IMG/VR virus record: IMGVR_UViG_3300045988_106441
Origin: a virus
Direction: 5' to 3' (one strand)
DNA: 44,463 nucleotides
Below the pieces are notes generated by a model that searched no databases, was not told where the DNA came from, and saw only the letters and a list, made by a program, of their open reading frames with translations. Shown in pieces: positions 4,439 through 38,974 of the stretch. The position numbers and the translations under genes were made by a program. Every line of letters starts with the position of its first letter. The first letter of the stretch is position 1.

Positions 4439-4816
4439 TTACCTTTCCTCCTTCGGCGGCTCCGGCAGCGGCATCCACGCCAAAGCACGAGCATTTGTTC
4501 CATTGGCAACTTCACCGCCCCAGATCCCGTTGTTTTGATATCCGAGTGCGTAATTTACAAACATTCCATTAAAGTCTCCATAGCGGAAATACTCACCCCA
4601 ACACAGCACTTTCCGAAAATTCTCCGGTAGCCGCTCCTCCACCGGGATCCAGTGGGGCACCTGCCCCCGCAGTTTCTCAATTTCTTTCGCCTGCGCTTCG
4701 ATCCGGTCAGCGGCCTCCGCCAGATCATCGCCCAGCGTGATCGGCGTTTCCCACTCATTTGCCTGCGCCCATTCTGCGTGCTCACGCAGAGCATTTACGA
4801 GGTTTGTATCTCTCAT
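4439..4816 (-). CDS. DUF551-like phage protein
   Basis: WIPVEERLPENFRKVLCWG...AWMPLPEPP resembles the DUF551 pattern. ATGA overlap with the MTase stop codon. Confidence 0.6.
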   Translation of the reverse strand: MRDTNLVNALREHAEWAQANEWETPITLGDDLAEAADRIEAQAKEIEKLRGQVPHWIPVEERLPENFRKVLCWGEYFRYGDFNGMFVNYALGYQNNGIWGGEVANGTNARALAWMPLPEPPKEER

Positions 4817-6457
4817 AATTCATCCTTTCCGTATGGGAACAAAAAGCGCCCCATGTCTCCTGGTTTCTCTACCGTGCCGAACCGCCGTTTGGTCACTGCG
4901 ATGGGAAACTCTTCAATCTCGCTGGCCCATAGGCACGTTCCGCGTCCGTTCAACTGCTCCCAGATCAGCGGGAAACCACCTATTCCATCGAACAAACTTG
5001 CCATAGTCGCGTCCCGCTCGTAGTTGCCGCACAGCCGTTTCAACAGCCATTTCCACGGCGGCAGGGCGATGGAGTTGCCCAGTGCCTTATACCGGGGGCT
5101 GTCCGCATCCTTGTGGCGCTTGCCCTTGCTGTCCATCCACTCGCCGATATCCGTCCAGCCGTCCGGGTAGCCCTGCAGCCGTTCGCGCTCCATCGGGGTA
5201 AGGCGTCGCACGATCATGCCCGTTCTCACGGTGTTCTGCAAATTGTAGCTGATTCCGCCGTTTGATTTTGCCTGCAAAGTCCCGTTTGTTTCGCCGCCTT
5301 CACGGAAGTTCCGGCAGTCAACGGCACACACAAGGTCTGTGCTGTCCTTAAAGTCCCGTTGCTTGCAACTGCTTGCAACTTCCCCCTCGCGGTAATCGCC
5401 GAATCCCTGCATTTGATATGTCAGCGGTATCTGGTTTCCCCCCGTCCCCATGCGTGCTTGCAAGCTTGGTGCGACCTCGCCGCAGTCTCGGATGACATCG
5501 CAAGCATGGCTCATATCCAGAATGGAGGGCTGGTGCCCATGCTCCTGTGCTCTCAGCGTCCCGGAAACATCATGGCTCACGCCCATCACATTCCCGCCTT
5601 GATCGTTCAGGCACAGCACCGCTGGTTTTTTCCCGCCGCACTCCGCATTCAGCGTAGGGGATTGCTCTTCGGCGTATCCGATGCTTCGCGCTTGCTCGCT
5701 GTTGCCGAGTTTAAACCCGGCGCATACAACCGGCTGATTGTTTCCGCTCATTCCTGCAGCGGCGGTCAAGGTTGGTGCTCTATCATCGCTTCGGACCTCG
5801 GCCCCGCCTTGCTGTGTTCCCATGCAGAAAATCGCCGGATTATTTACTCCCCCGCCAACGCCACCTTGTAGCGTCGGGGATTCTCCCTCTGTTCCAAAAA
5901 TCCGTTTGCTTTGGCAGTCCCATGCTGTTAAGCATTGCTCTGTTTTACCAGCACGGCTTTCAGCGTTTCCGGCAAGTCTTTCCCCCGCCGTTCCGCTCTC
6001 CGCAGGATGCCCTGACACGCTTTTGCGCTCAAAGAGTATTTCTCCTGCGGTGTCGCCTCCAAAATCTGCGACAACCGAGATACGACGGCGGCGTTGGGGG
6101 ACTCCCCAGTATTGCGCATCATGCACTCGCCAAGCCACGCTCCATCGTCCTCCCACTTCATCGTGGTAGCCCCCCCAGGTTGGCCAGCCTTTTTCAGGCA
6201 CTTCAATATCGGGGGCTTCCGGCTCTGCGATGCGGATGGCTTCTTCGAGGACGGCTGCGAAGTCTTTTCCGCCGTTGCTTGAGAAGGCTCCGGGGACATT
6301 TTCCCAGACCATATACCGAGGTCGCACAAACTCACCTGTTCGCCCGCTTGCCATGTCACGTTCTCTCATCTCCTTGATAATCCGTATTTGCTCCATATAC
6401 AGGCCGGAACGCGCCCCGGCAAGCCCTGCCCGTTTTCCGGCAATGGAAAGGTCCTGG
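4813..6457 (-). pseudogene. DNA (cytosine-5)-methyltransferase, distal fragment, cut off from its start by the insertion
   Basis: Contains ENVPGAF (motif VI), QYWGVPQRRRR (VIII), RRLTPMERERLQGYPDGW (IX), YKALGNSIALP (X), then MASLFDGIGGF (I) and WASEIEEF (II). The frame stays open upstream of ATG 6396 to 6457 (QDLSIAGKRAGLAGARSGLY). Confidence 0.85.
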
Positions 6458-6477
6458 TTATCCCGAATTCGGAATAA

Positions 6478-6565
6478 CCAGGATTATGCCGAGGAAATAG
6501 TTATTCCGAAGTCATTGCATAGAGTCTTGTAAAACAAGGATTCTCCGCAAAAACTTCGGAATAAC
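6478..6565. repeat. Left terminal inverted repeat of the RIT-like element
   Basis: ccaggattatgccgaggaaatagttattccgaagt (35 bp perfect), a divergent spacer, then aaaaacttcggaataac (17 bp perfect), compared with the reverse complement of 10254..10342. Confidence 0.85.
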
Positions 6566-6589
6566 AAAGCGGGCCTCATTTTATATAAT
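6561..6589 (+). promoter_or_regulatory. Candidate promoter for the recombinase trio
   Basis: ATAACA, 17 nt, TATAAT. The -35 overlaps the 13-bp motif copy at 6553-6565. RBS AAGGAGG precedes ATG 6638. Confidence 0.3.
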
Positions 6590-6637
6590 GTGGATATGCA
6601 GACAACCGTCTGACACCACAAAATATAAGGAGGGCCT

Positions 6638-8239
6638 ATGGAACTGATTGAATTAGACGCAACTGCACAGCGTGCCCTGGAGTTGTTAATCAATGCGGGG
6701 ATGAGTGATGGAAGCATATACGACTATACTCATACAGGTTTTGGCAGCATACTTCGACATTTTCACACAAAAGGCATACTATATGCGACAGGAGAAATGC
6801 TTGACACGTTTTTGCTGGAACAACGCACACTTTTAAACCAGGGAGAGATTTCACTGTGGAAATGGAGACTTGTTCGCAGGAGTTGTGAGCTTCTGAAACA
6901 ATGTTCAGCGACGGATTCTATTGATTTACCTGATCTTCGCCCATGGGACCCTGTATGGGATCGTCCCAAGCAGGTCATTCACCGTGACACTCCAACGGAA
7001 AAACAGTTTGCAGACTCTGAAAATATCTATGTGCTTGTCTGGATGGTCAATAAACGAATGGAACAGATGGGCCTTTCGGAAAGTACGATCCGACATTACA
7101 CGGAAGAGGGCTTGGCCGTCATCTTAAAAAAGCATTATGATTCTGGCACAGAAAATTACTCAGACAAACTTATGTCCCAGCTTATAGAGGAACGAAGACT
7201 GCAATACGAGCAAGGGGAGGTTGGCAGAACTACTTATCAGAATTTGCGTAAAGCGGCGGCGATGCTCCAGGAGTTCCGCCTGACAGGGAAAATCACGCCG
7301 GAAAGGATTCCTAATTGGGGACGGCGCGAAGTTATTCCTCAGCACAAAGCGATTCTGGATAAATTCAGTGCGCATGTCACAACGCAGAGCAACTGGGCTG
7401 AAAGTTCCGTCAGCACAGTTACAAGTGTAGCCCATGTATTTTTGCTTGAATTAGAGGATCATGGAGTAGCCTCTGTTGAAACTGTTGCAAGGATGGATAT
7501 TGTCGCATGCGTTACAAGAATGCTTGGACGATACACTGGTGGAATGAGATCTGCTCTTTTTGGCATTCGGACCTTTCTGCGATTTTTATATGAGGCCGAG
7601 ATCACTGCGGATAATTTTTGCAAAACACTCCCGGAATTTGTTTGCCCTCGGAAGAACTTTCGTGAAGGTTTTTCCGATGATGAATTGGAACGTCTACTTT
7701 CTCAGCCAGATACCACATCTGCGGTCGGGAAAAGAGACTACGCTATGATGGTTTTGGCTGCGCAAAGCGGCTTGCGGTCTTGCGACATCATACGGCTCAC
7801 ATTTGACAGTATCAATTGGAGAACGAGGGAAATTCGTGTTGTTCAGCACAAAACAGGACAACCAATCGTAATTCCTCTTGAACCGGAAGCAGGTAACGCT
7901 ATAGCAGATTACTTGCTAAATGGGCGCCCCAAAAGTTCACTACCGCAAATTTTCCTCTGTCACGTCGGTGCTGTCCGTGCTTTGAAAAGTCGAACCGGAA
8001 GTGCAATTGTCTCCAAATACATGAAGGGCGCAGGAATTCATTCCGGGTATCGCGGATTCCACAGTTTCCGGCGCACCTTTGCTACAAGTTTGCTTCAGAG
8101 CAAAGTGTCAATCGAGTTGATTCAACAGATGTTAGGACAGACTCATATTGATTCTGCAAAGCCATACCTGTCCATTGATGAACAGGGGTTAAAGCAGTGT
8201 GCGTTGCCCTTGATCTCCCATGGAAAGGCAGGGAACTGA
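6638..8239 (+). CDS. Tyrosine recombinase 1 of the trio (RitA-like, long N-terminal extension)
   Basis: 533 aa. GLRSCD...HSFRRTFATSLL...LGQTHIDSAKPYL gives an R..HxxR..Y pattern. RBS AAGGAGG. Confidence 0.9.
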   Translation: MELIELDATAQRALELLINAGMSDGSIYDYTHTGFGSILRHFHTKGILYATGEMLDTFLLEQRTLLNQGEISLWKWRLVRRSCELLKQCSATDSIDLPDLRPWDPVWDRPKQVIHRDTPTEKQFADSENIYVLVWMVNKRMEQMGLSESTIRHYTEEGLAVILKKHYDSGTENYSDKLMSQLIEERRLQYEQGEVGRTTYQNLRKAAAMLQEFRLTGKITPERIPNWGRREVIPQHKAILDKFSAHVTTQSNWAESSVSTVTSVAHVFLLELEDHGVASVETVARMDIVACVTRMLGRYTGGMRSALFGIRTFLRFLYEAEITADNFCKTLPEFVCPRKNFREGFSDDELERLLSQPDTTSAVGKRDYAMMVLAAQSGLRSCDIIRLTFDSINWRTREIRVVQHKTGQPIVIPLEPEAGNAIADYLLNGRPKSSLPQIFLCHVGAVRALKSRTGSAIVSKYMKGAGIHSGYRGFHSFRRTFATSLLQSKVSIELIQQMLGQTHIDSAKPYLSIDEQGLKQCALPLISHGKAGN

Positions 8240-9208
8240 ATGGTGTACACCTTCGAGAGCCACTTTGCAGCCCAGATTGAGAATTTCATTGCTCAGAAAA
8301 ACGCGCTGGGGTTTGGTTATCTGGAGTCCTCCCGTCTCCTGCGAGACTTTGACCGCTTTTGCCTGACGCATTTCCCGGAAGAAAATACACTGACCAAGGA
8401 GCTTTGCTTAGCTTGGGCCACGAAAAAGGATACCGAAGGCAACAATACCTTCCGCAACCGTATGATGCCGGTGCGCGAGTTTGCCAGATACTTAAACCGC
8501 AACGGCGAAGCTGCTTACATTCTGCCGCCAGACATTGCCAGGAAAGATGCGCCGTATGCCCCGTACATCTACACCGAGGCCGAAATCCTGGCCATTTGGG
8601 ATGTTTTCGACCACTTGAAACCGAGAGGTGGTTTCCCGGTGCGGCAATTTGTGATCCCAGCTATGATAAAGCTGATGTACTGCTGCGGTCTGCGTCCATC
8701 TGAGGCCAGAAGGCTTCATGTAGACGATGTGGATTTGGACATTGGGCGGCTGAACATTATGGAGAGCAAACAGCACAGGAGCCGTATTGTTATGATGGCG
8801 GATGATGTGACGAAGATGCTCTCAGATTGCAATGCCGTTGTGACTTCCGCTATGCCGGAACGCGAGCCGTTCTTTCCCAACTCTGAGGGCGGTTTTTACG
8901 GGAAGAGAGGGCTGGAGAAGACTTTCCGCCTGGTTTTGAAGAAAGCAGGTGTTACGGGAACCGGCCGACGTTCCCCGCGTCTTTATGACTTTCGTCATAC
9001 TTTTGCCACCCACAGGCTGTACCACTGGATGAACGAGGGCAAAGATCTGAACGTTATGATTCCCTATCTGAGCGCGTACATGGGCCATGCGCAACTCTCG
9101 GACACCTATTACTACATTCATTTAGTTCCTGGCTTGTTGGAGGAAATGTCCGGGTTCACGTTTTCTTCTGCCGAGGCATTCTTGCCGGAGGTAGGAAACG
9201 ATGAGTGA
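8240..9208 (+). CDS. Tyrosine recombinase 2 of the trio (RitB-like)
   Basis: 322 aa. GLRPSEARRL...HDFRHTFATHRL...MGHAQLSDTYYYIH. Starts directly after the stop codon of gene 1. Confidence 0.9.
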   Translation: MVYTFESHFAAQIENFIAQKNALGFGYLESSRLLRDFDRFCLTHFPEENTLTKELCLAWATKKDTEGNNTFRNRMMPVREFARYLNRNGEAAYILPPDIARKDAPYAPYIYTEAEILAIWDVFDHLKPRGGFPVRQFVIPAMIKLMYCCGLRPSEARRLHVDDVDLDIGRLNIMESKQHRSRIVMMADDVTKMLSDCNAVVTSAMPEREPFFPNSEGGFYGKRGLEKTFRLVLKKAGVTGTGRRSPRLYDFRHTFATHRLYHWMNEGKDLNVMIPYLSAYMGHAQLSDTYYYIHLVPGLLEEMSGFTFSSAEAFLPEVGNDE

Positions 9209-10226
9209 TTTCTTTGATGCAATCCGGCGTTTTCTGCTGGACTATCTGCCCAAGCAGCGCTGCCTTAGTAAAAATACGATTCTCTCCTACAGACAGACAC
9301 TCAATATTTTCGTGGCTTATATGAGGGATGAGATAGGGATTGGAGCTGCTGAGCTGACCTTCTCCCGTGTTGACCGGGACGTCATTCTTAACTTCCTAAC
9401 CTGGCTGGAAAAGGCGCGGGGATGTAGTGTCTCTACCCGCAACCAGCGTTTAATGGCATTGCGGTCTTTCCTGGACTTCGCTGGACAAATCGATTGTACG
9501 CAGACGTCATTGTATCTTTCTGCCTGCAATATTCCCTCCAAGGAGGCTCACGGGCGAATCGTTGAATTCCTGACCGAACCGGCGTTGACCGCGCTGCTTC
9601 AACAGCCCAATCCTTCCAGGCAGAAAGACCAGCGGAATCTTGTATTCATGATCCTCATGTATGATACCGCTGCCCGATGCAGTGAACTTCTCGATATGAA
9701 GGTCTGTGACCTGCGTCTTGACGCAAAACATCCAATTGCGTACTTGCATGGTAAGGGACGAAAAACCCGTACAGTGCCGTTGCTGAACAGAACAGTCCAA
9801 CACTGCAAACAGTATCTGAACAAATTCCATCCCAACAAGGATGACTACAGTGAGGCACCGTTGTTCTATACCATGATCCATGGGAGGCAGCAAAAGATGT
9901 CTCCCGATACGGTAGCAGCATTCTTTGCAAAGTATGGGAGCATGGCAAAGGCGGTTTGTCAGGAAGTTCCCGAACATATCCATCCGCACATGATGCGGCA
10001 CACACGGGCGATGCACTTATACCAATCCGGGATGCCCATGGTACTTCTTTCCCAATATCTTGGCCATGCACAGGTTGAGACAACAATGATCTATGCTTAT
10101 GCGGATACCGAGATGAAACGTGCCGCAATTCAGAAAGCTGATGCTGTCCGTGGAACCAAGCCCGTGCCGGATGAGATTTGGGCTGATAACGAGGAAATGA
10201 TTTTGAAGTTATCTGGTCTGCTCTAA
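9201..10226 (+). CDS. Tyrosine recombinase 3 of the trio (RitC-like)
   Basis: 341 aa. TAARCSELLDM...HMMRHTRAMHLY...LGHAQVETTMIYAYAD. Overlaps gene 2 by 8 nt. Confidence 0.9.
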   Translation: MSDFFDAIRRFLLDYLPKQRCLSKNTILSYRQTLNIFVAYMRDEIGIGAAELTFSRVDRDVILNFLTWLEKARGCSVSTRNQRLMALRSFLDFAGQIDCTQTSLYLSACNIPSKEAHGRIVEFLTEPALTALLQQPNPSRQKDQRNLVFMILMYDTAARCSELLDMKVCDLRLDAKHPIAYLHGKGRKTRTVPLLNRTVQHCKQYLNKFHPNKDDYSEAPLFYTMIHGRQQKMSPDTVAAFFAKYGSMAKAVCQEVPEHIHPHMMRHTRAMHLYQSGMPMVLLSQYLGHAQVETTMIYAYADTEMKRAAIQKADAVRGTKPVPDEIWADNEEMILKLSGLL

Positions 10227-10253
10227 TCCTATTGTTCTATATATGCCGATTAT

Positions 10254-10342
10254 GTTATTCCGAAGTTTTTGCTGGTAACGCCTTGTACTACAGGGTTTGC
10301 AGCGATTACTTCGGAATAACTATTTCCTCGGCATAATCCTGG
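10254..10342. repeat. Right terminal inverted repeat of the RIT-like element
   Basis: Its reverse complement matches 6478..6565 (35 bp and 17 bp perfect blocks). Contains GTTATTCCGAAGT at 10254-10266 and its inverse at 10308-10320. Confidence 0.85.
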
Positions 10343-10422
10343 CATGGGCTGCCGCCGATCACCACGTCCACAACGGGTGCTTCCCCGCCGTGGATCTTTG
10401 TTATGTCGCCTAAGTGGATCAT
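10337..10422 (-). pseudogene. DNA (cytosine-5)-methyltransferase, proximal fragment (start codon to the PCQ motif)
   Basis: MIHLGDITKIHGGEAPVVDVVIGGSPCQ(D), preceded by GGAGGTGGAGGA. In the current state it reads into the element and stops after ...QDYAEEIVIPK at 10306. Confidence 0.85.
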
Positions 10423-10742
10423 TCCTCCACCTCCGTAAGCCAGAATTTCTTCCGGCACTCCAGGCAACATCCCACGCCGGGGCAATTTCCACGCAATACT
10501 GCATCCACTTCGCAAGGAGACATTTTGACGATCCCGGTATCTGGAAATATTGGTGCATTGGGAAACATCTCCAAAAACACGCTCTGCCTGGTTTTGACGG
10601 GGTGCTCTGCGGCCCACTGTTCGACTTGACTAACGAGTGATATAGGTTCAATATGTGCAATATTAAGTTCTTCACCGTAATAATCCGGGTTGCTTTTACT
10701 GCGTTTTTTCAGTTGTTCCAAAAACTCCACAGCATCCATCAT
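10419..10742 (-). CDS. Cys-rich hypothetical protein (paralog of 3618..3959)
   Basis: 107 aa sharing the N-terminal, central and C-terminal motifs of 3618..3959. ATGA overlap with the MTase start. Confidence 0.65.
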   Translation of the reverse strand: MMDAVEFLEQLKKRSKSNPDYYGEELNIAHIEPISLVSQVEQWAAEHPVKTRQSVFLEMFPNAPIFPDTGIVKMSPCEVDAVLRGNCPGVGCCLECRKKFWLTEVEE

Positions 10743-11146
10743 TCTGCCTCCTCAATGATGACCTCCACGCGGGAGGCTCCAGTTGTCTGATACTTTCGCA
10801 CCATCAGCAGTGCGATTGCGCTGTCATCGTTGTAGGCGTGGCCGTTCAACGCGTCCAGAATGGCCTTCGCCACGTTGTCGGCGTCAGGTCGCTTAATGTG
10901 GGGTGTTCCGTCCATCGCAGCGGCCTTTTTCTTTGACGTGCTCTTGGGCACCGTGAAGAACGCCGTGACGGCGGCCGTCAGCGGGATACCCGCCGCAAAA
11001 CCTTTCCCACTTTGGCACTTCCAGCACTGGATCACCTTGTCCTCGTAGTCCCGCGTTTTCTGCGGGGTGTAGGTGTGGCCGTTTTTCATAAAACGTGGGC
11101 GGCCCTTGCCCACCGGAATACCGGGGACCGTAAATTCAATTTTCAT
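10739..11146 (-). CDS. rusA: RusA-family Holliday junction resolvase
   Basis: MKIEFTVPGIPVGKGRPRF...RPDADNVAKAILDALNGHAYNDDS is the classic RusA pattern. Start trimmed to the ATG after AAGAGG. Confidence 0.85.
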   Translation of the reverse strand: MKIEFTVPGIPVGKGRPRFMKNGHTYTPQKTRDYEDKVIQCWKCQSGKGFAAGIPLTAAVTAFFTVPKSTSKKKAAAMDGTPHIKRPDADNVAKAILDALNGHAYNDDSAIALLMVRKYQTTGASRVEVIIEEAE

Positions 11147-11300
11147 TGTTCGCCTCTTTCTTCGGCTCAAATCCGCTCTTTCCCTCGCACTTGCACAGGT
11201 AGCATTTGTCTGAATGTCTGTTTGCACAATGTACGCATGCAAAGGCAAACGTATAAACCCCCATCGGGTAAAGAACGGGTTCGGTAGATTCAACCTTCAT
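11136..11300 (-). CDS. Small Cys-rich ORF (54 aa)
   Basis: Hand translation gives MKVESTEPVLYPMGVYTFAFACVHCANRHSDKCYLCKCEGKSGFEPKKEANNEN. ATGA overlap with the upstream MTase stop, and it overlaps the rusA start. Confidence 0.4.
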   Translation of the reverse strand: MKVESTEPVLYPMGVYTFAFACVHCANRHSDKCYLCKCEGKSGFEPKKEANNEN

Positions 11301-11992
11301 CGTTTTCCCTCCTCACAGGTAAACAAACTGATCTGCGCCGTGTGTTCCGCAAAGCGCTTTTCCTGCGCCTGAAAATAGTGAGGGTCGATCTCGCATCCAG
11401 CAAAATCAAAACCAAGATCATAGGCGGCTATGCGGCTGCTACCGCTGCCTAAGTGGGTGTCCAGTATCTTGTCTCCGGGCTTGGCGTACTTCTGAAGCAA
11501 CCACACGTAAAGCGCCACAGGCTTCTGCGTCGGATGAATGCGCTGCTCGTTCAGCGCCTTATTCCCTTGCTGGATAAACCCCTCTGCGATGCTTTTGCCC
11601 TGCATCATTCCATTCCACATGTAGTGGAAAAGCCGTACGCTGTCATGGCAGTTTGTGGCTGCGATCTCGCAATCGCTAAAAGAGCTGCCCTCGTTGCACT
11701 TGTTCCAAACAATGCGCCCCGGCGCAAAGTGATAGTCGAAATAGTTGCAACCCCAAACGATATAGCGCTTTGCGACACGTTCCAACTCATCGAAATATTC
11801 ACGTGTCGGAATATCCCACTTCGGCGATATGGGGTAGTCTCTGTGCACACCGATTTTGCTGACCTTGCAGCCATAATATCCGCGCCGCTCCGGCCCGCTG
11901 AAATATGGAGGGTCTACCACAGCCAGATCAAACGCCTTATCGGACAGCGTCCGCATATACTCCATGCAGTCCATGTTATAGGCTACGTTCAC
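11297..11992 (-). CDS. DNA methyltransferase, N6-adenine/N4-cytosine type (DPPY)
   Basis: DLAVVDPPY (motif IV) precedes ILDTHLGSGSS (motif I), the beta-class order. GTG start 6 nt after AAGGAGGAAAAG. Confidence 0.85.
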   Translation of the reverse strand: MNVAYNMDCMEYMRTLSDKAFDLAVVDPPYFSGPERRGYYGCKVSKIGVHRDYPISPKWDIPTREYFDELERVAKRYIVWGCNYFDYHFAPGRIVWNKCNEGSSFSDCEIAATNCHDSVRLFHYMWNGMMQGKSIAEGFIQQGNKALNEQRIHPTQKPVALYVWLLQKYAKPGDKILDTHLGSGSSRIAAYDLGFDFAGCEIDPHYFQAQEKRFAEHTAQISLFTCEEGKR

Positions 11993-18910: not shown

Positions 18911-19345
18911 ATGACCATTCAGGAAGTTTGTAAGGCGAAACGTAACGCTTTGGGTATGACCATTCAGGACATAGCTGAAGCATCGGGGATTCCGCCGTCT
19001 ACCGTCAACAATTTCTTTACCCATGCTTCCAAGGCCCCCTATATCTCCACGGTTGGGCCAATATGCGCCGTCCTTGGCGTGTCGCTGGATGAATTTTACG
19101 GCATCGGAGATCATCTGACGGCCAGTGAGGAAACGTTGCAAGCGGAAAAGGACGGACTAGAACACCGCCTTGAGAACAAACGGCAGACCATCGGCCTGAT
19201 GGACACAGAACTGTGCAATCTTTGGCACTCCGTGAAGCTATACAGGTGGATCATACTCGGTTTGTCACTATTGATCATCGGGCTTTTTGCCTGGTGCGTT
19301 TGGGTTGACATCCATTGTGCCAACTATGGATTTTGGAGGGGATAA
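18911..19345 (+). CDS. Membrane-anchored XRE HTH protein
   Basis: Start MTIQEVCKAKRNALGMTIQDIAEASGIPPSTVNNF follows TAAGGAGG. Coiled coil, then a C-terminal TM helix (WIILGLSLLIIGLFAWCVWV). Confidence 0.7.
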   Translation: MTIQEVCKAKRNALGMTIQDIAEASGIPPSTVNNFFTHASKAPYISTVGPICAVLGVSLDEFYGIGDHLTASEETLQAEKDGLEHRLENKRQTIGLMDTELCNLWHSVKLYRWIILGLSLLIIGLFAWCVWVDIHCANYGFWRG

Positions 19346-19346
19346 C

Positions 19347-20687
19347 ATGTGCCAAAAAATAGTGGTCACTCTACCAAATAATCTACGCATCCGTGTAGCA
19401 CTGTACATCAGGGTATCGACCGAAGAACAGGCGAAGCACGGCCTGTCCCTGGCAGACCAGCGTGATGCCCTGATTGCATATGCCGCCGCACACGGCATGG
19501 AGGTGGTGGGTATTTACGAGGACGCCGGAATCAGCGCCAGAAAGCCGTATAAAAAGCGTCCGGCCTTGATGCGCCTGCTTGATGATTGCCGCGCCGGGAA
19601 AATCGACACCATCCTTTTTGTCAAGCTGGATAGGTGGTTTCGGAATGTGGCGGGGTACTACGCCGTGCAAGAGGTTCTCGACAAAAATCATGTGGATTGG
19701 CAGGCCATTAGAGAGGACTACGAAACGCGGACTGCATCAGGGCGATTGAAGGTCAATATTATGTTGTCGGTAGCGCAGGACGAAGCTGACCGCACATCGG
19801 AGCGCATTAAGGCCATCAACGAGGGCAAGAGGGCAAAGGGCCAGCCCACCAACGGGAAAACTCCTATCGGAATCTGCGTGAAGAACCGGCGCTACGACAT
19901 TGATGAAAAAACCGCAGATGCGGCGCGAGATATGTTCCCAGCCTTTATACGGCTGCAAAGCATCCTTGCGCTAAGGCGGTATATGGCAACGGAGTGGGGG
20001 ATCAAACGCTCGTACAACAAATACAAGGATGCGTTGAGAAGCCGCCTGTACTTAGGTGAGGCGTTCGGCGTGGAAAACGCATTGCCCGCGCTTGTCGATC
20101 GAGAAACTTTCGACCTTGCTGGGAAAATCTTGGAACGGCGAAGCCAGCGGAACGCCAGTGCGGATCGAATATATTTGTTTACCGGAATTCTCCGTTGCCG
20201 GGAGTGCGGTAGAAATATGCAGCCGGAGACTGTAAAGCAGGTGTACAAGTACTACCGATGCAGAACGCACACACTTGACCCAGCCGACTGCCCGCACATC
20301 CTCAGAATCCGAGAAGATGTGCTTGAGGATTACCTTCTGAGGGAATTTGAGGGGATCGCAAAAAAGTATTACTCCAAATCAAAAACCGCAGAAAAAAAGC
20401 CGCCCAAAACGGCGGAGCAAATCAAGCGGAAAATGCAAAAACTGAAAGACCTGTATCTGTCGGATTTGATTGAAATCGAAGAATACAAAAAAGACTATAC
20501 GGAATTGAAACAGCAGCTCGCGGCAATAAACCCGGAGCCTATAAAAGAATTTGACCTTGAAACATTACGGCGGGAATTGAAGGAATATCCTGATTTAGAC
20601 CGACAGGCAAAAAAGGAATTCTGGGTACGCACAATCCAGCGCATCGACGCAGACAATGACGGTGCGTTTTTTGTAACGCCAAGTTAG
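19347..20687 (+). CDS. Large serine recombinase (phage integrase)
   Basis: ALYIRVSTEEQ...GLSLADQR resolvase domain, then a recombinase domain, a zinc ribbon (CRECGRNMQ...YYRC) and a coiled coil. Start after GGAGGGGATAAC. Confidence 0.9.
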   Translation: MCQKIVVTLPNNLRIRVALYIRVSTEEQAKHGLSLADQRDALIAYAAAHGMEVVGIYEDAGISARKPYKKRPALMRLLDDCRAGKIDTILFVKLDRWFRNVAGYYAVQEVLDKNHVDWQAIREDYETRTASGRLKVNIMLSVAQDEADRTSERIKAINEGKRAKGQPTNGKTPIGICVKNRRYDIDEKTADAARDMFPAFIRLQSILALRRYMATEWGIKRSYNKYKDALRSRLYLGEAFGVENALPALVDRETFDLAGKILERRSQRNASADRIYLFTGILRCRECGRNMQPETVKQVYKYYRCRTHTLDPADCPHILRIREDVLEDYLLREFEGIAKKYYSKSKTAEKKPPKTAEQIKRKMQKLKDLYLSDLIEIEEYKKDYTELKQQLAAINPEPIKEFDLETLRRELKEYPDLDRQAKKEFWVRTIQRIDADNDGAFFVTPS

Positions 20688-38568: not shown

Positions 38569-38974
38569 TTTTCAGCTCGCTTTCCAAAATGTCCCGATAC
38601 TGTCCCGCATGGTCGGCGGCAGCAGGTTTCAAAAACGGCTGTGCTTTGTTGCCGCGCGTGTAATGCCAGTTGCCTTTTTCATCCTGATACACCCACGGCG
38701 TAGGCCGTCCTCCGCCTCCCTCGGCATAAATGCCGGTACCTAATTCAACGTACTCGCCGTGCTCGGAATCCGTGCCGATGTACGCCGCGGGCTCGCCGTC
38801 GTCTACCACATGGGTAATGCTGTTGCGCAGGATGCCTGTCGGATTTTTAAATCCGTCACACAGCTTTTTCGCATATCCCTCTGCCACCAGCCCGCATTTT
38901 TCAAGCCCGCGAAGAATCGCCGCTTTGATCTCAGCGGAAACCTCCGCACTGTGGTCTTCGATTGTAACGCTCAT
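38561..38974 (-). CDS. HK97 gp10-family protein
   Basis: 137 aa. ...AKKLCDGFKNPTGILRNSITHVV...AQPFLKPAA resembles the gp10 family. Confidence 0.6.
   Translation of the reverse strand: MSVTIEDHSAEVSAEIKAAILRGLEKCGLVAEGYAKKLCDGFKNPTGILRNSITHVVDDGEPAAYIGTDSEHGEYVELGTGIYAEGGGGRPTPWVYQDEKGNWHYTRGNKAQPFLKPAAADHAGQYRDILESELKNG

Follow-up and report, generated by a model that had tools for sequence, protein, structure and literature searches.

A probable recombinase-in-trio element in the motif IV codons of a gut phage C5-methyltransferase gene, and a proposed recombination mechanism drawn from its junctions

RIT (recombinase in trio) elements have been recognised since 2009 and are spread over many phyla, their archetype reportedly being Rmet_1271-1273 of Cupriavidus metallidurans CH34, from the work of Van Houdt (2009/2012) and Ricker (2013). 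Their genes abut or overlap by 4-8 bp (PMC3414803) and their terminal inverted repeats measure 34 bp (PMC10214605); RitA has an extra core-binding (CB)-type domain preceding the usual CB and catalytic domains, and RitC a conserved C-terminal extension, a helix, beyond the catalytic tyrosine (PMC8138268). Published locations include a Tn6049-type transposase gene and radC of an integrative and conjugative element (ICE). Target specificity, empty site and mode of movement have been given as 'not tested', and the ends have been called unclear (PMC10214605, PMC3414803). Here we describe the block at positions 6458-10342 of a viral DNA of 44,463 nucleotides (IMG/VR record IMGVR_UViG_3300045988_106441; the whole stretch is called the window below), which is very probably an intact and probably active RIT member, recently inserted in the Pro-Cys-Gln (PCQ, motif IV) codons of the C5-methyltransferase gene of a temperate siphophage of gut Clostridia. 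The evidence supports a RIT with an extra RitA domain, a target in the catalytic codons of C5-methylases of phages and conjugative elements, and a junction structure that gives a testable mechanism for the family. The genes, repeats and interrupted methylase are as follows.

6638-8239, plus strand: ritA, 533 aa; PF00589, E 4e-25
8240-9208, plus strand: ritB, 322 aa; PF00589, E 2e-21
9201-10226, plus strand: ritC, 341 aa; PF00589, E 5e-31; PF02899, SAM-like N-terminal domain
6484-6565, plus strand: left inverted repeat, with terminal motif TTATGCCGAG at 6484-6493, direct motif GTTATTCCGAAGT at 6500-6512 and inverted motif at 6553-6565
10254-10336, minus strand: right inverted repeat, with motifs at 10254-10266 and 10308-10320 and terminal motif at 10327-10336
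10343-10422, minus strand: C5-methyltransferase, 5' part, MIHLGDITKIHGGEAPVVDVVIGGSPC..
4813-6457, minus strand: C5-methyltransferase, 3' part, from ..DLSIAGKRAG to the stop; motifs VI, VIII, X, then I-II; PF00145, TIGR00675

The three tyrosine-recombinase genes were present as the first-pass annotation of this DNA had placed them, and its suggestion that they resemble a recombinase trio was borne out by comparison (blastp/tblastn) with the trios of Rhodococcus opacus pR1CP1, Mesorhizobium pMSNZP2077NSa and R. leguminosarum pRL10, the last being among the plasmids with RitA-family (Famint1) proteins in the supplement of Van Houdt et al. 2012 (PMC3414803). The window proteins matched these references position for position, with E values, in the above plasmid order, of 9e-61, 1e-21 and 4e-21 for RitA, 5e-58, 1e-29 and 1.5e-32 for RitB, and 1e-93, 2e-50 and 2e-37 for RitC. 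Cognate pairs therefore spanned 1e-93 to 1e-21, and non-cognate pairs gave 4e-12 or worse. Whether the recombinases would group with ordinary phage integrases or Xer proteins had been set as a test beforehand; they grouped with RitA, RitB and RitC, and the best scores against NCBIfam Xer models (98-149 bits) were far under the cut-offs of 267-335. ritB starts at 8240 directly after the ritA stop (8239), and the last 8 bp of ritB (9201-9208) are shared with ritC. In the order and overlap of its genes, its total length and its terminal repeat of about 34 bp, the element agrees with published RITs (PMC3414803, PMC10214605), which share with the window element the adjacent ritA-ritB-ritC genes of distinct tyrosine-recombinase subfamilies with short overlaps, a total of ~3.5-3.9 kb, terminal inverted repeats of ~34-35 bp, palindromic sub-terminal sequence, multiple copies per genome and the lack of cargo (the only three open reading frames (ORFs) between the inverted repeats are the recombinases). 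The hosts differ, being gut Clostridia, their phages and ICEs here and mainly alpha- and beta-proteobacteria for the described RITs.

The long terminal inverted repeats also stood up to inspection. They occupy 6478-6565 and 10254-10342 (88/89 bp, imperfect) and match perfectly over the outer 35 bp and over an inner 20 bp, the inner stretch being longer than first noted; the perfect terminal stretch is 29 bp once a variable hexamer is left out. By our own estimate, chance alone would produce a perfect inverted repeat of 35 bp in a 4-kb span ~1e-14 times. Each repeat contains an internal imperfect palindrome of 26-27 nt, and the motif described earlier as recurring in inverted pairs at both ends was recovered as TTATNCCGAR, which is found 9 times over the 44 kb of the window, where 0.67 would be expected, 8 of the 9 copies lying at the element ends (6458, 6468, 6484, 6501, 6555, 10255, 10310 and 10327). 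An extra TTATGCCGAG copy at 38720-38729, distant from the element, is most likely due to chance at that expected number per window.

In the window ritA we found two N-terminal four-helix domains (1-100 and 122-222), a core-binding domain (229-325) and the catalytic domain, and the protein exceeds the reference RitA proteins in length by ~120 aa. An AlphaFold model based on 24 homologues likewise showed three four-helix bundles followed by the catalytic domain (mean pLDDT 74.7, first bundle >90), with bundles 1 and 2 homologous to each other (hhalign probability 97%, E 1.7e-11) and the last ~290 residues superposing on XerA and XerD. As modelled, the RitA of the window clade is thus one domain richer than the two CB domains described for RITs, through duplication of an N-terminal helical domain. 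A MerR match in RitA (E 0.009) was below cut-off and was dismissed. R380, K405, H475, R478 and Y510, as read from the RitA sequence, were invariant or nearly so in the 24 homologues. In RitC, every catalytic box aligned with XerA (4a8e), and the expected C-terminal extension was present: ~38 residues follow the Tyr box and align to the very C-terminus of RitC from Rhodococcus and from Mesorhizobium (query 4-340 and 8-340 of 341), the XerA alignment ending at 317. The closest solved folds to the Rit proteins are those of XerA, XerD and the Tn1549 integrase.

Tn554, the SE elements and GInt resemble the window element in having several tyrosine recombinases and strong target-site specificity. 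Tn554, however, has the recombinases TnpA and TnpB plus a small non-recombinase protein, TnpC, and no terminal inverted repeats, whereas the third gene here encodes a full tyrosine recombinase and the terminal inverted repeats are long. GInt and SE elements have four conserved genes, including the non-recombinase GinC/Tfp and GinD/Srap, and usually cargo, in contrast to the three recombinase ORFs of the window. The positional matches to RitA, RitB and RitC, the long inverted repeats and a palindromic junction set the window element apart from all of these and leave it outside both Tn554 and GInt/SE.

As the first-pass annotation had claimed, the methylase is truncated after 38 aa by the insertion (product MIHLGD..SPCQDYAEEIVIPK*), and deleting 6458-10342 in silico restores it in frame. 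The result is a single minus-strand ORF of 574 aa, ..VVIGGSPCQDLSIAGKRAGLAGARSGLYMEQIRIIKEMR.. / ..GGSPCQDLSIAGKRAG.., whose PF00145 match improves from 1.8e-15 in the interrupted state to 1.2e-31. The existence of empty-site alleles in related genomes was a further test set beforehand. The exact 27-nt empty site (target sequence AGCCCATGCCAGGACCTTTCCATTGCC) was present in eleven viral contigs; contig L174 (IMGVR_UViG_3300029115_000012) is an empty allele 98.9% identical to the window over 3009 bp spanning the in-silico excision point, and L179 is 97.3% identical across the same point. The identity of L174 across the junction points to a recent insertion. More distant phages, MT835513 and MT837724 (L007, L008), have intact, uninterrupted homologues of the methylase gene. 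The rest of the window is that of a temperate siphophage, with large terminase, portal, major head protein, tape measure and tail fibre genes, and no second target-like site was found in it.

The methylase itself is circularly permuted, starting with motifs III/IV (M-x-HLGDITK..GGSPCQ), followed by VI, VIII and X and finally by I-II at the C-terminus (..MASLFDGIGGFPL..ASEIEEFPIAVTK), where residues 464-507 match Pfam profile positions 2-43. This order is natural and not a rearrangement, since the uninterrupted MT835513 (L007) homologue is ordered alike.

To find other copies, viral, metagenome and genome collections were searched with the terminal repeat sequence only, with no flank, so that the search was unbiased toward flanks. 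This inverted-repeat-only pattern recovered at least 184 junctions, mostly from human-gut metagenomes. Among the matches listed, 93 of the 96 evaluable 5' junctions abutted ..G-x-P-C codons and 74 of the 77 evaluable 3' junctions abutted Q-D-L-S-x-A codons, placing ~96% of evaluable junctions in the same C5-methylase PCQ motif, in at least 40 distinct genes; at least 41 distinct 5' flanks and at least 34 distinct 3' flanks remained after removal of near-duplicates. Conserved ends and target in other copies, also set as a test in advance, were therefore found. The targets include clearly different enzymes (VDIICGGSPC, VDIITFGSPC, VWCITGGSPC, PDIIIGGPPC, ADLWAGGFPC), and the element copies are 92-98% identical to that of the window, their methylase flanks being 65-88% identical where alignable at all. 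These data show that the gut clade of the element is site-specific for DNA coding ..GG(S/F/P)PC|Q(D)LS(V/I)AG.., with the consensus GGnnnnCCnTGy-CAGGA-yCTGTCCGTnGC. Conservation of this target has a 3-nt periodicity and falls at each third base, indicating that the element exploits an amino-acid constraint. Even the few sites that lie outside methylases contain CCGTGC or CAGGATyTGTTC, so recognition operates at the DNA level.

Carriers are gut Clostridia, namely Vescimonas sanitatis, Hominicoprocola, Subdoligranulum and metagenome-assembled genomes of Lachnospiraceae and Oscillospiraceae; the cultured isolate Vescimonas sanitatis MH37-1 has at least 8 junctions, and one of its scaffolds (3939 bp) is the element itself. 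PF00145 fragments likewise border the relatives with 65%, 56% and 48% RitA identity, whose surroundings resemble those of phages and conjugative elements, so that methylase targeting is family-wide down to 48% RitA identity. Our literature search, which was incomplete in coverage and did not extend to Ricker et al. 2013, gave no account of methylase motif IV as the target of any transposon, recombinase trios included. The 'three tyrosine recombinases' of Tyrovirus were considered as a precedent and rejected, as they are dispersed phage genes and form no trio.

The rare non-methylase sites are L139/L029 (V. sanitatis scaffold13 and a metagenome contig), L004 (MT836596) and L135. In L139/L029 the 20-bp palindrome described below is followed by CAGGAT(T/C)TGTTCATAGAGG and then by a terminator hairpin; in L004 a 5'-type junction follows ..GTTCTCCGTGCCAGTG, directly past a terminator hairpin. 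These look like secondary sites resembling the target at the DNA level. At the 3' junctions of L026 and L108, which represent two methylase alleles, one base is missing after the hexamer (CAGGA|CTCAGC vs CAGGAT|CTCAGC), and precise excision would therefore leave a frameshift.

The junctions of the window copy comprise the following sites.

6452-6457: outer hexamer H3, TCCTGG (CCAGGA on the methylase strand); methylase-3' junction, proposed crossover spacer
6458-6477: 20-bp palindrome TTATCCCGAA/TTCGGAATAA, two putative binding motifs, inverted; methylase-3' side
6478-6483: inner hexamer H2, CCAGGA; spacer of a proposed internal core-type site, X
10337-10342: hexamer H1, TCCTGG (CCAGGA on the methylase strand); methylase-5' junction spacer, completing the codons TGC CAG GA
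6561-6589, plus strand: promoter-like site ATAACA-17-TATAAT upstream of ritA; 10/12 consensus positions; putative function

The TCCTGG direct repeat that bounds the element at 6452-6457 and 10337-10342 was as previously described. Two other readings of this region had to be revised once copies were compared. CCAGGA at 6478-6483, taken at first for part of the inverted repeat, is instead a variable 6-bp spacer (TCAGGA, TCAAGA, TCAGGG, CGGGGA and others elsewhere), and the 20-bp palindrome, taken for a degenerate copy restricted to the left end, is instead conserved among copies and invariably on the methylase-3' side. Followed along the methylase coding strand, an insertion consists of the 5' methylase (..TGy), a hexamer (mostly yCAGGA), a repeat beginning with TTATGCCGAG.., ritABC in either orientation, the other repeat, an inverted hexamer, the 20-bp palindrome TTATyCCGA-NN-TCGGrATAA, a hexamer and the 3' methylase. 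The palindrome was on the methylase-3' side in all 79 junctions of that type among the matches listed, whichever repeat adjoined it, and its central dinucleotide varied (at, ta, ca, aa, tt, ag, gg, cc). The outer hexamers track the codon usage of the target (CAA or CAG, TGT or TGC), H3 being for example TCAGGA, CCAAGA or TCAAGA; the inner hexamer varies among copies and at times copies rare target variants (CCAAGA, CCAAGG, TCAAGA).

This layout suggests three core-type recombination sites, each formed by an arm, a 6-bp spacer and an arm. The first, attL, would have the target arm and the terminal motif on either side of the hexamer; X would comprise the terminal motif, the inner hexamer and half of the 20-bp palindrome; and a third site, Y, the other palindrome half, the hexamer and the target 3' arm. 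The 3' arm of the target, yCTGTCCGTG, is a degenerate version of the putative binding motif TTATTCCGAG of the element, and the 5' arm is not. Recombination between attL and Y, as direct repeats, would excise the element precisely as a circle and restore the methylase. The joined ends of the circle, predicted to read CTCGGCATAA-N6-TTATYCCGANNTCGGRATAA-N6-TTATGCCGAG, would form a palindrome of ~90 bp holding two equivalent core sites, and re-integration through either of them could give both orientations. Such a palindromic joined-end site, which the first-pass annotation had proposed, would fit the data. Recombination between attL and X, as inverted repeats, would flip the element in place. The further motif copies inside each inverted repeat are probably accessory (arm-type) sites for the multi-domain RitA. 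The -35 hexamer of the ritA promoter-like site shares bases with the inner putative binding motif, which suggests autoregulation. For the phage, the predicted consequence is loss of the C5 methylase until excision.

Inverted binding arms about a 6-8 bp spacer, together with the circular intermediate proposed here, are reminiscent of the Tn916/Tn1549 integrases, Xer/dif and Cre/loxP, and in Tn916/Tn1549 non-identical spacers are tolerated, or give heteroduplex, in a way that can be likened to the window element. Those systems work with one recombinase or a XerC/D pair as opposed to three, and a double palindromic core site where the ends meet is not known from any of them.

Both orientations of the element were about equally frequent among the matches listed (50:40 for 5' junctions, 30:32 for 3' junctions). 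When junctions with 100% identical 60-nt flanks were grouped, both orientations were present in 6 of the 10 groups with at least 2 members on the 5' side and in 4 of 7 on the 3' side. Simple two-way integration predicts a link between element orientation and the C/T asymmetry of the 20-mer, and none was found (16/13 vs 9/11). The occurrence of both orientations at identical flanks, together with the independence of orientation from palindrome asymmetry, supports flipping in place.

Several observations weigh against the above interpretation. In the sequence, the window RitA appears to have Gln where the family consensus has the second His, and RitB seems to read Y-D-F-R-H where H-x-x-R-H is usual. 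The first bases of H2 and H3 were only weakly associated (Fisher p = 0.13), and some 5'-junction hexamers (CACCGA, CACGGA, CGGGGA) depart from the expected target. These hexamers are not what a simple conservative exchange between identical spacers would leave; by analogy they may reflect decay or carry-over from a previous site, as in Tn554 and the SEs, where the 6-bp junction sequence is likewise no simple target duplication and can come from the previous site. In addition, 13 contigs pair two same-type junctions (among them L010, L043, L049, L050, L071, L092, L131, L146 and L151 with two of the 5' type, and L029, L127 and L142 with two of the 3' type), the result either of short-read misjoining through the 3.9-kb repeat or of recombination between copies in one genome. 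Comparison of 5' and 3' hexamers within a contig is therefore unreliable, and the analysis uses single junctions plus the window, whose two flanks are collinear with L174. The circle junction (IR', hexamer, 20-mer, hexamer, IR, where IR is the inverted repeat) was absent from all 180 loci, and contigs of 3.6-4.7 kb had no terminal overlaps indicative of circular forms; the missing junction is uninformative, however, because a 90-bp palindrome is expected to break short-read assemblies. Finally, we infer excision, inversion and the cleavage positions indirectly, from sequence comparison.

Other explanations of the locus were weighed against a mobile RIT. It is very hard to see the trio as the phage's own integration or dimer-resolution module, of ordinary integrase or Xer type: although all three proteins match PF00589 and show a weak likeness to XerC and XerD models, their Xer scores are those given above, far short of the cut-offs, the block is bounded by inverted repeats inside a gene, and the near-identical phage L174 is without it. 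Moreover, the phage has a large serine integrase of its own (19287-20687), so the trio is not its integration module. A single ancient insertion, inherited vertically with the methylase and leaving a now immobile trio whose in-frame restoration is a relic, finds support in L157-L160, the clade with 56% RitA identity. These copies always occur in one context (an N6/N4 methylase plus the C5 methylase), lack the terminal motif and internal site X at one end (~30 bp) and have mismatched hexamers (CACCGA vs CCAGGA), yet their three ORFs are intact; they may be an immobilised derivative. Such a history is contradicted for the window copy by the L174 empty allele. Within the clade of the window, copies of the element resemble one another much more closely than their flanks do and occupy dozens of different target genes, and the window copy has intact ORFs and 35-bp inverted repeats; we consider it extremely improbable here.

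A domesticated, reversible on/off switch of mobile-element methylases, making the phage or ICE methylome phase-variable by regulated precise excision and re-insertion, would account for the exact restoration of the reading frame, for the coexistence in public data of occupied and empty alleles of nearly the same phage and for the apparently frequent flipping in place; all three window hexamers are identical, so that recombination should be possible. We nevertheless think it unlikely, as nothing ties excision to a signal, a few secondary sites lie outside methylases (L004, L139/L029, L135), actinobacterial RITs of the same architecture interrupt unrelated genes, and the presence in at least 40 different methylase genes, in phage-like and ICE-like backgrounds and in multiple copies in one isolate fits a selfish spreader. 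Also doubtful is a linear free form with hairpin ends, in which one Rit protein would act like a telomere resolvase, cutting near the centre of the 20-mer. Mobilome sequencing of Sphingobium yielded exonuclease-protected RIT DNA and no circle-junction reads, and its authors proposed hairpin forms (PMC5737581); the freely variable central dinucleotide of the palindrome is also what replication of a small hairpin loop would give. However, ordinary arm-spacer-arm core sites with crossover at the hexamer fully explain the layout, it is the hexamers and not the palindrome centre that track the target sequence, and a 90-bp palindromic junction is hard to assemble or map, which makes absent junction reads weak evidence. 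A combined scheme, in which one recombinase would resolve the joined-end palindrome to a hairpin-capped linear intermediate and the other two would integrate it at the hexamer, seems to us equally a long shot. If true, that intermediate would be a form not seen in other bacterial transposons, and would explain both the need for three recombinases and exonuclease-protected RIT DNA devoid of circle junctions.

Returning to the mobile RIT, two actinobacterial RITs outside the gut clade show the same junction layout, with hexamer, 20-mer and hexamer confined to one end, inside other conserved genes. In a Rhodococcus RIT (L136; R. opacus pR1CP1, NZ_CP009112.1 834159-843160), one end reads TACCAG, TTATTCCGAggTCGGAATAA, CTGGTA and the repeat, and the other CTGGTA and the repeat. 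This inner RIT, with perfect 116-bp inverted repeats, is nested in the ritB of another RIT at its catalytic-Tyr codons (..TYTYWY|LSAAP); deleting it in silico gives back the C-terminus of the outer RitB, and the 3' arm of its target, TATCTGTCCGCGGC, is nearly the same DNA as that of the methylase target. A Mycobacterium RIT (L180; M. intracellulare plasmid NZ_CP012886.2 147541-156434) has GGTGCG, TTATGCCGAccTCGGCATAA, CGCACC at one end only and sits within the helix-turn-helix codons of an interrupted IS21 istA transposase gene (..GMDRKTV|RRYVDRA), the joined flanks reading as one gene. The trios of Sinorhizobium (L181) and pRL10 (L168) had no clear long terminal repeats and the Mesorhizobium RIT no obvious 20-mer, so the generality of the layout rests on three elements. 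From these few cases, RITs appear to home on conserved coding motifs of genes on other mobile elements.

Homing on catalytic-motif DNA that cannot drift is familiar from introns and inteins, and we know of no documented case among recombinase-driven transposons. Like group I introns and inteins with homing endonucleases, the window element inserts in conserved catalytic-motif DNA, a target that many genomes therefore possess in conserved form, and its precise removal would restore the gene; those elements use double-strand break and repair, as against the site-specific recombination proposed here, and the window element does not splice, so its host gene is inactive while occupied. Cytosine methylases of phages and conjugative elements are thought to protect incoming DNA from restriction. 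By disabling them, the element parasitises other mobile elements, and it could change how encounters between phage and host end in the gut. For RITs, the locus and its relatives supply a precise target, exact ends and a three-site model that predicts excision and inversion products, the first two going beyond the descriptions cited above, together with a cultured multi-copy host (Vescimonas sanitatis MH37-1) and natural occupied and empty phage alleles. In practice, metagenome assemblies are broken or wrongly joined at the element.

Directly upstream, within the same operon (10739-11992, minus strand), lie a RusA-like resolvase gene (10739-11293) and an intact N6/N4-type DNA methyltransferase gene (11297-11992), so that the phage retains one methylase while its C5 enzyme is disrupted. 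The CCAGGA form of the proposed crossover hexamer (target TGCCAGGA; also at 6478-6483 and 10337-10342) includes CCAGG, the classic Dcm/EcoRII-type cytosine-methylation site, which the TCAGGA form does not contain.

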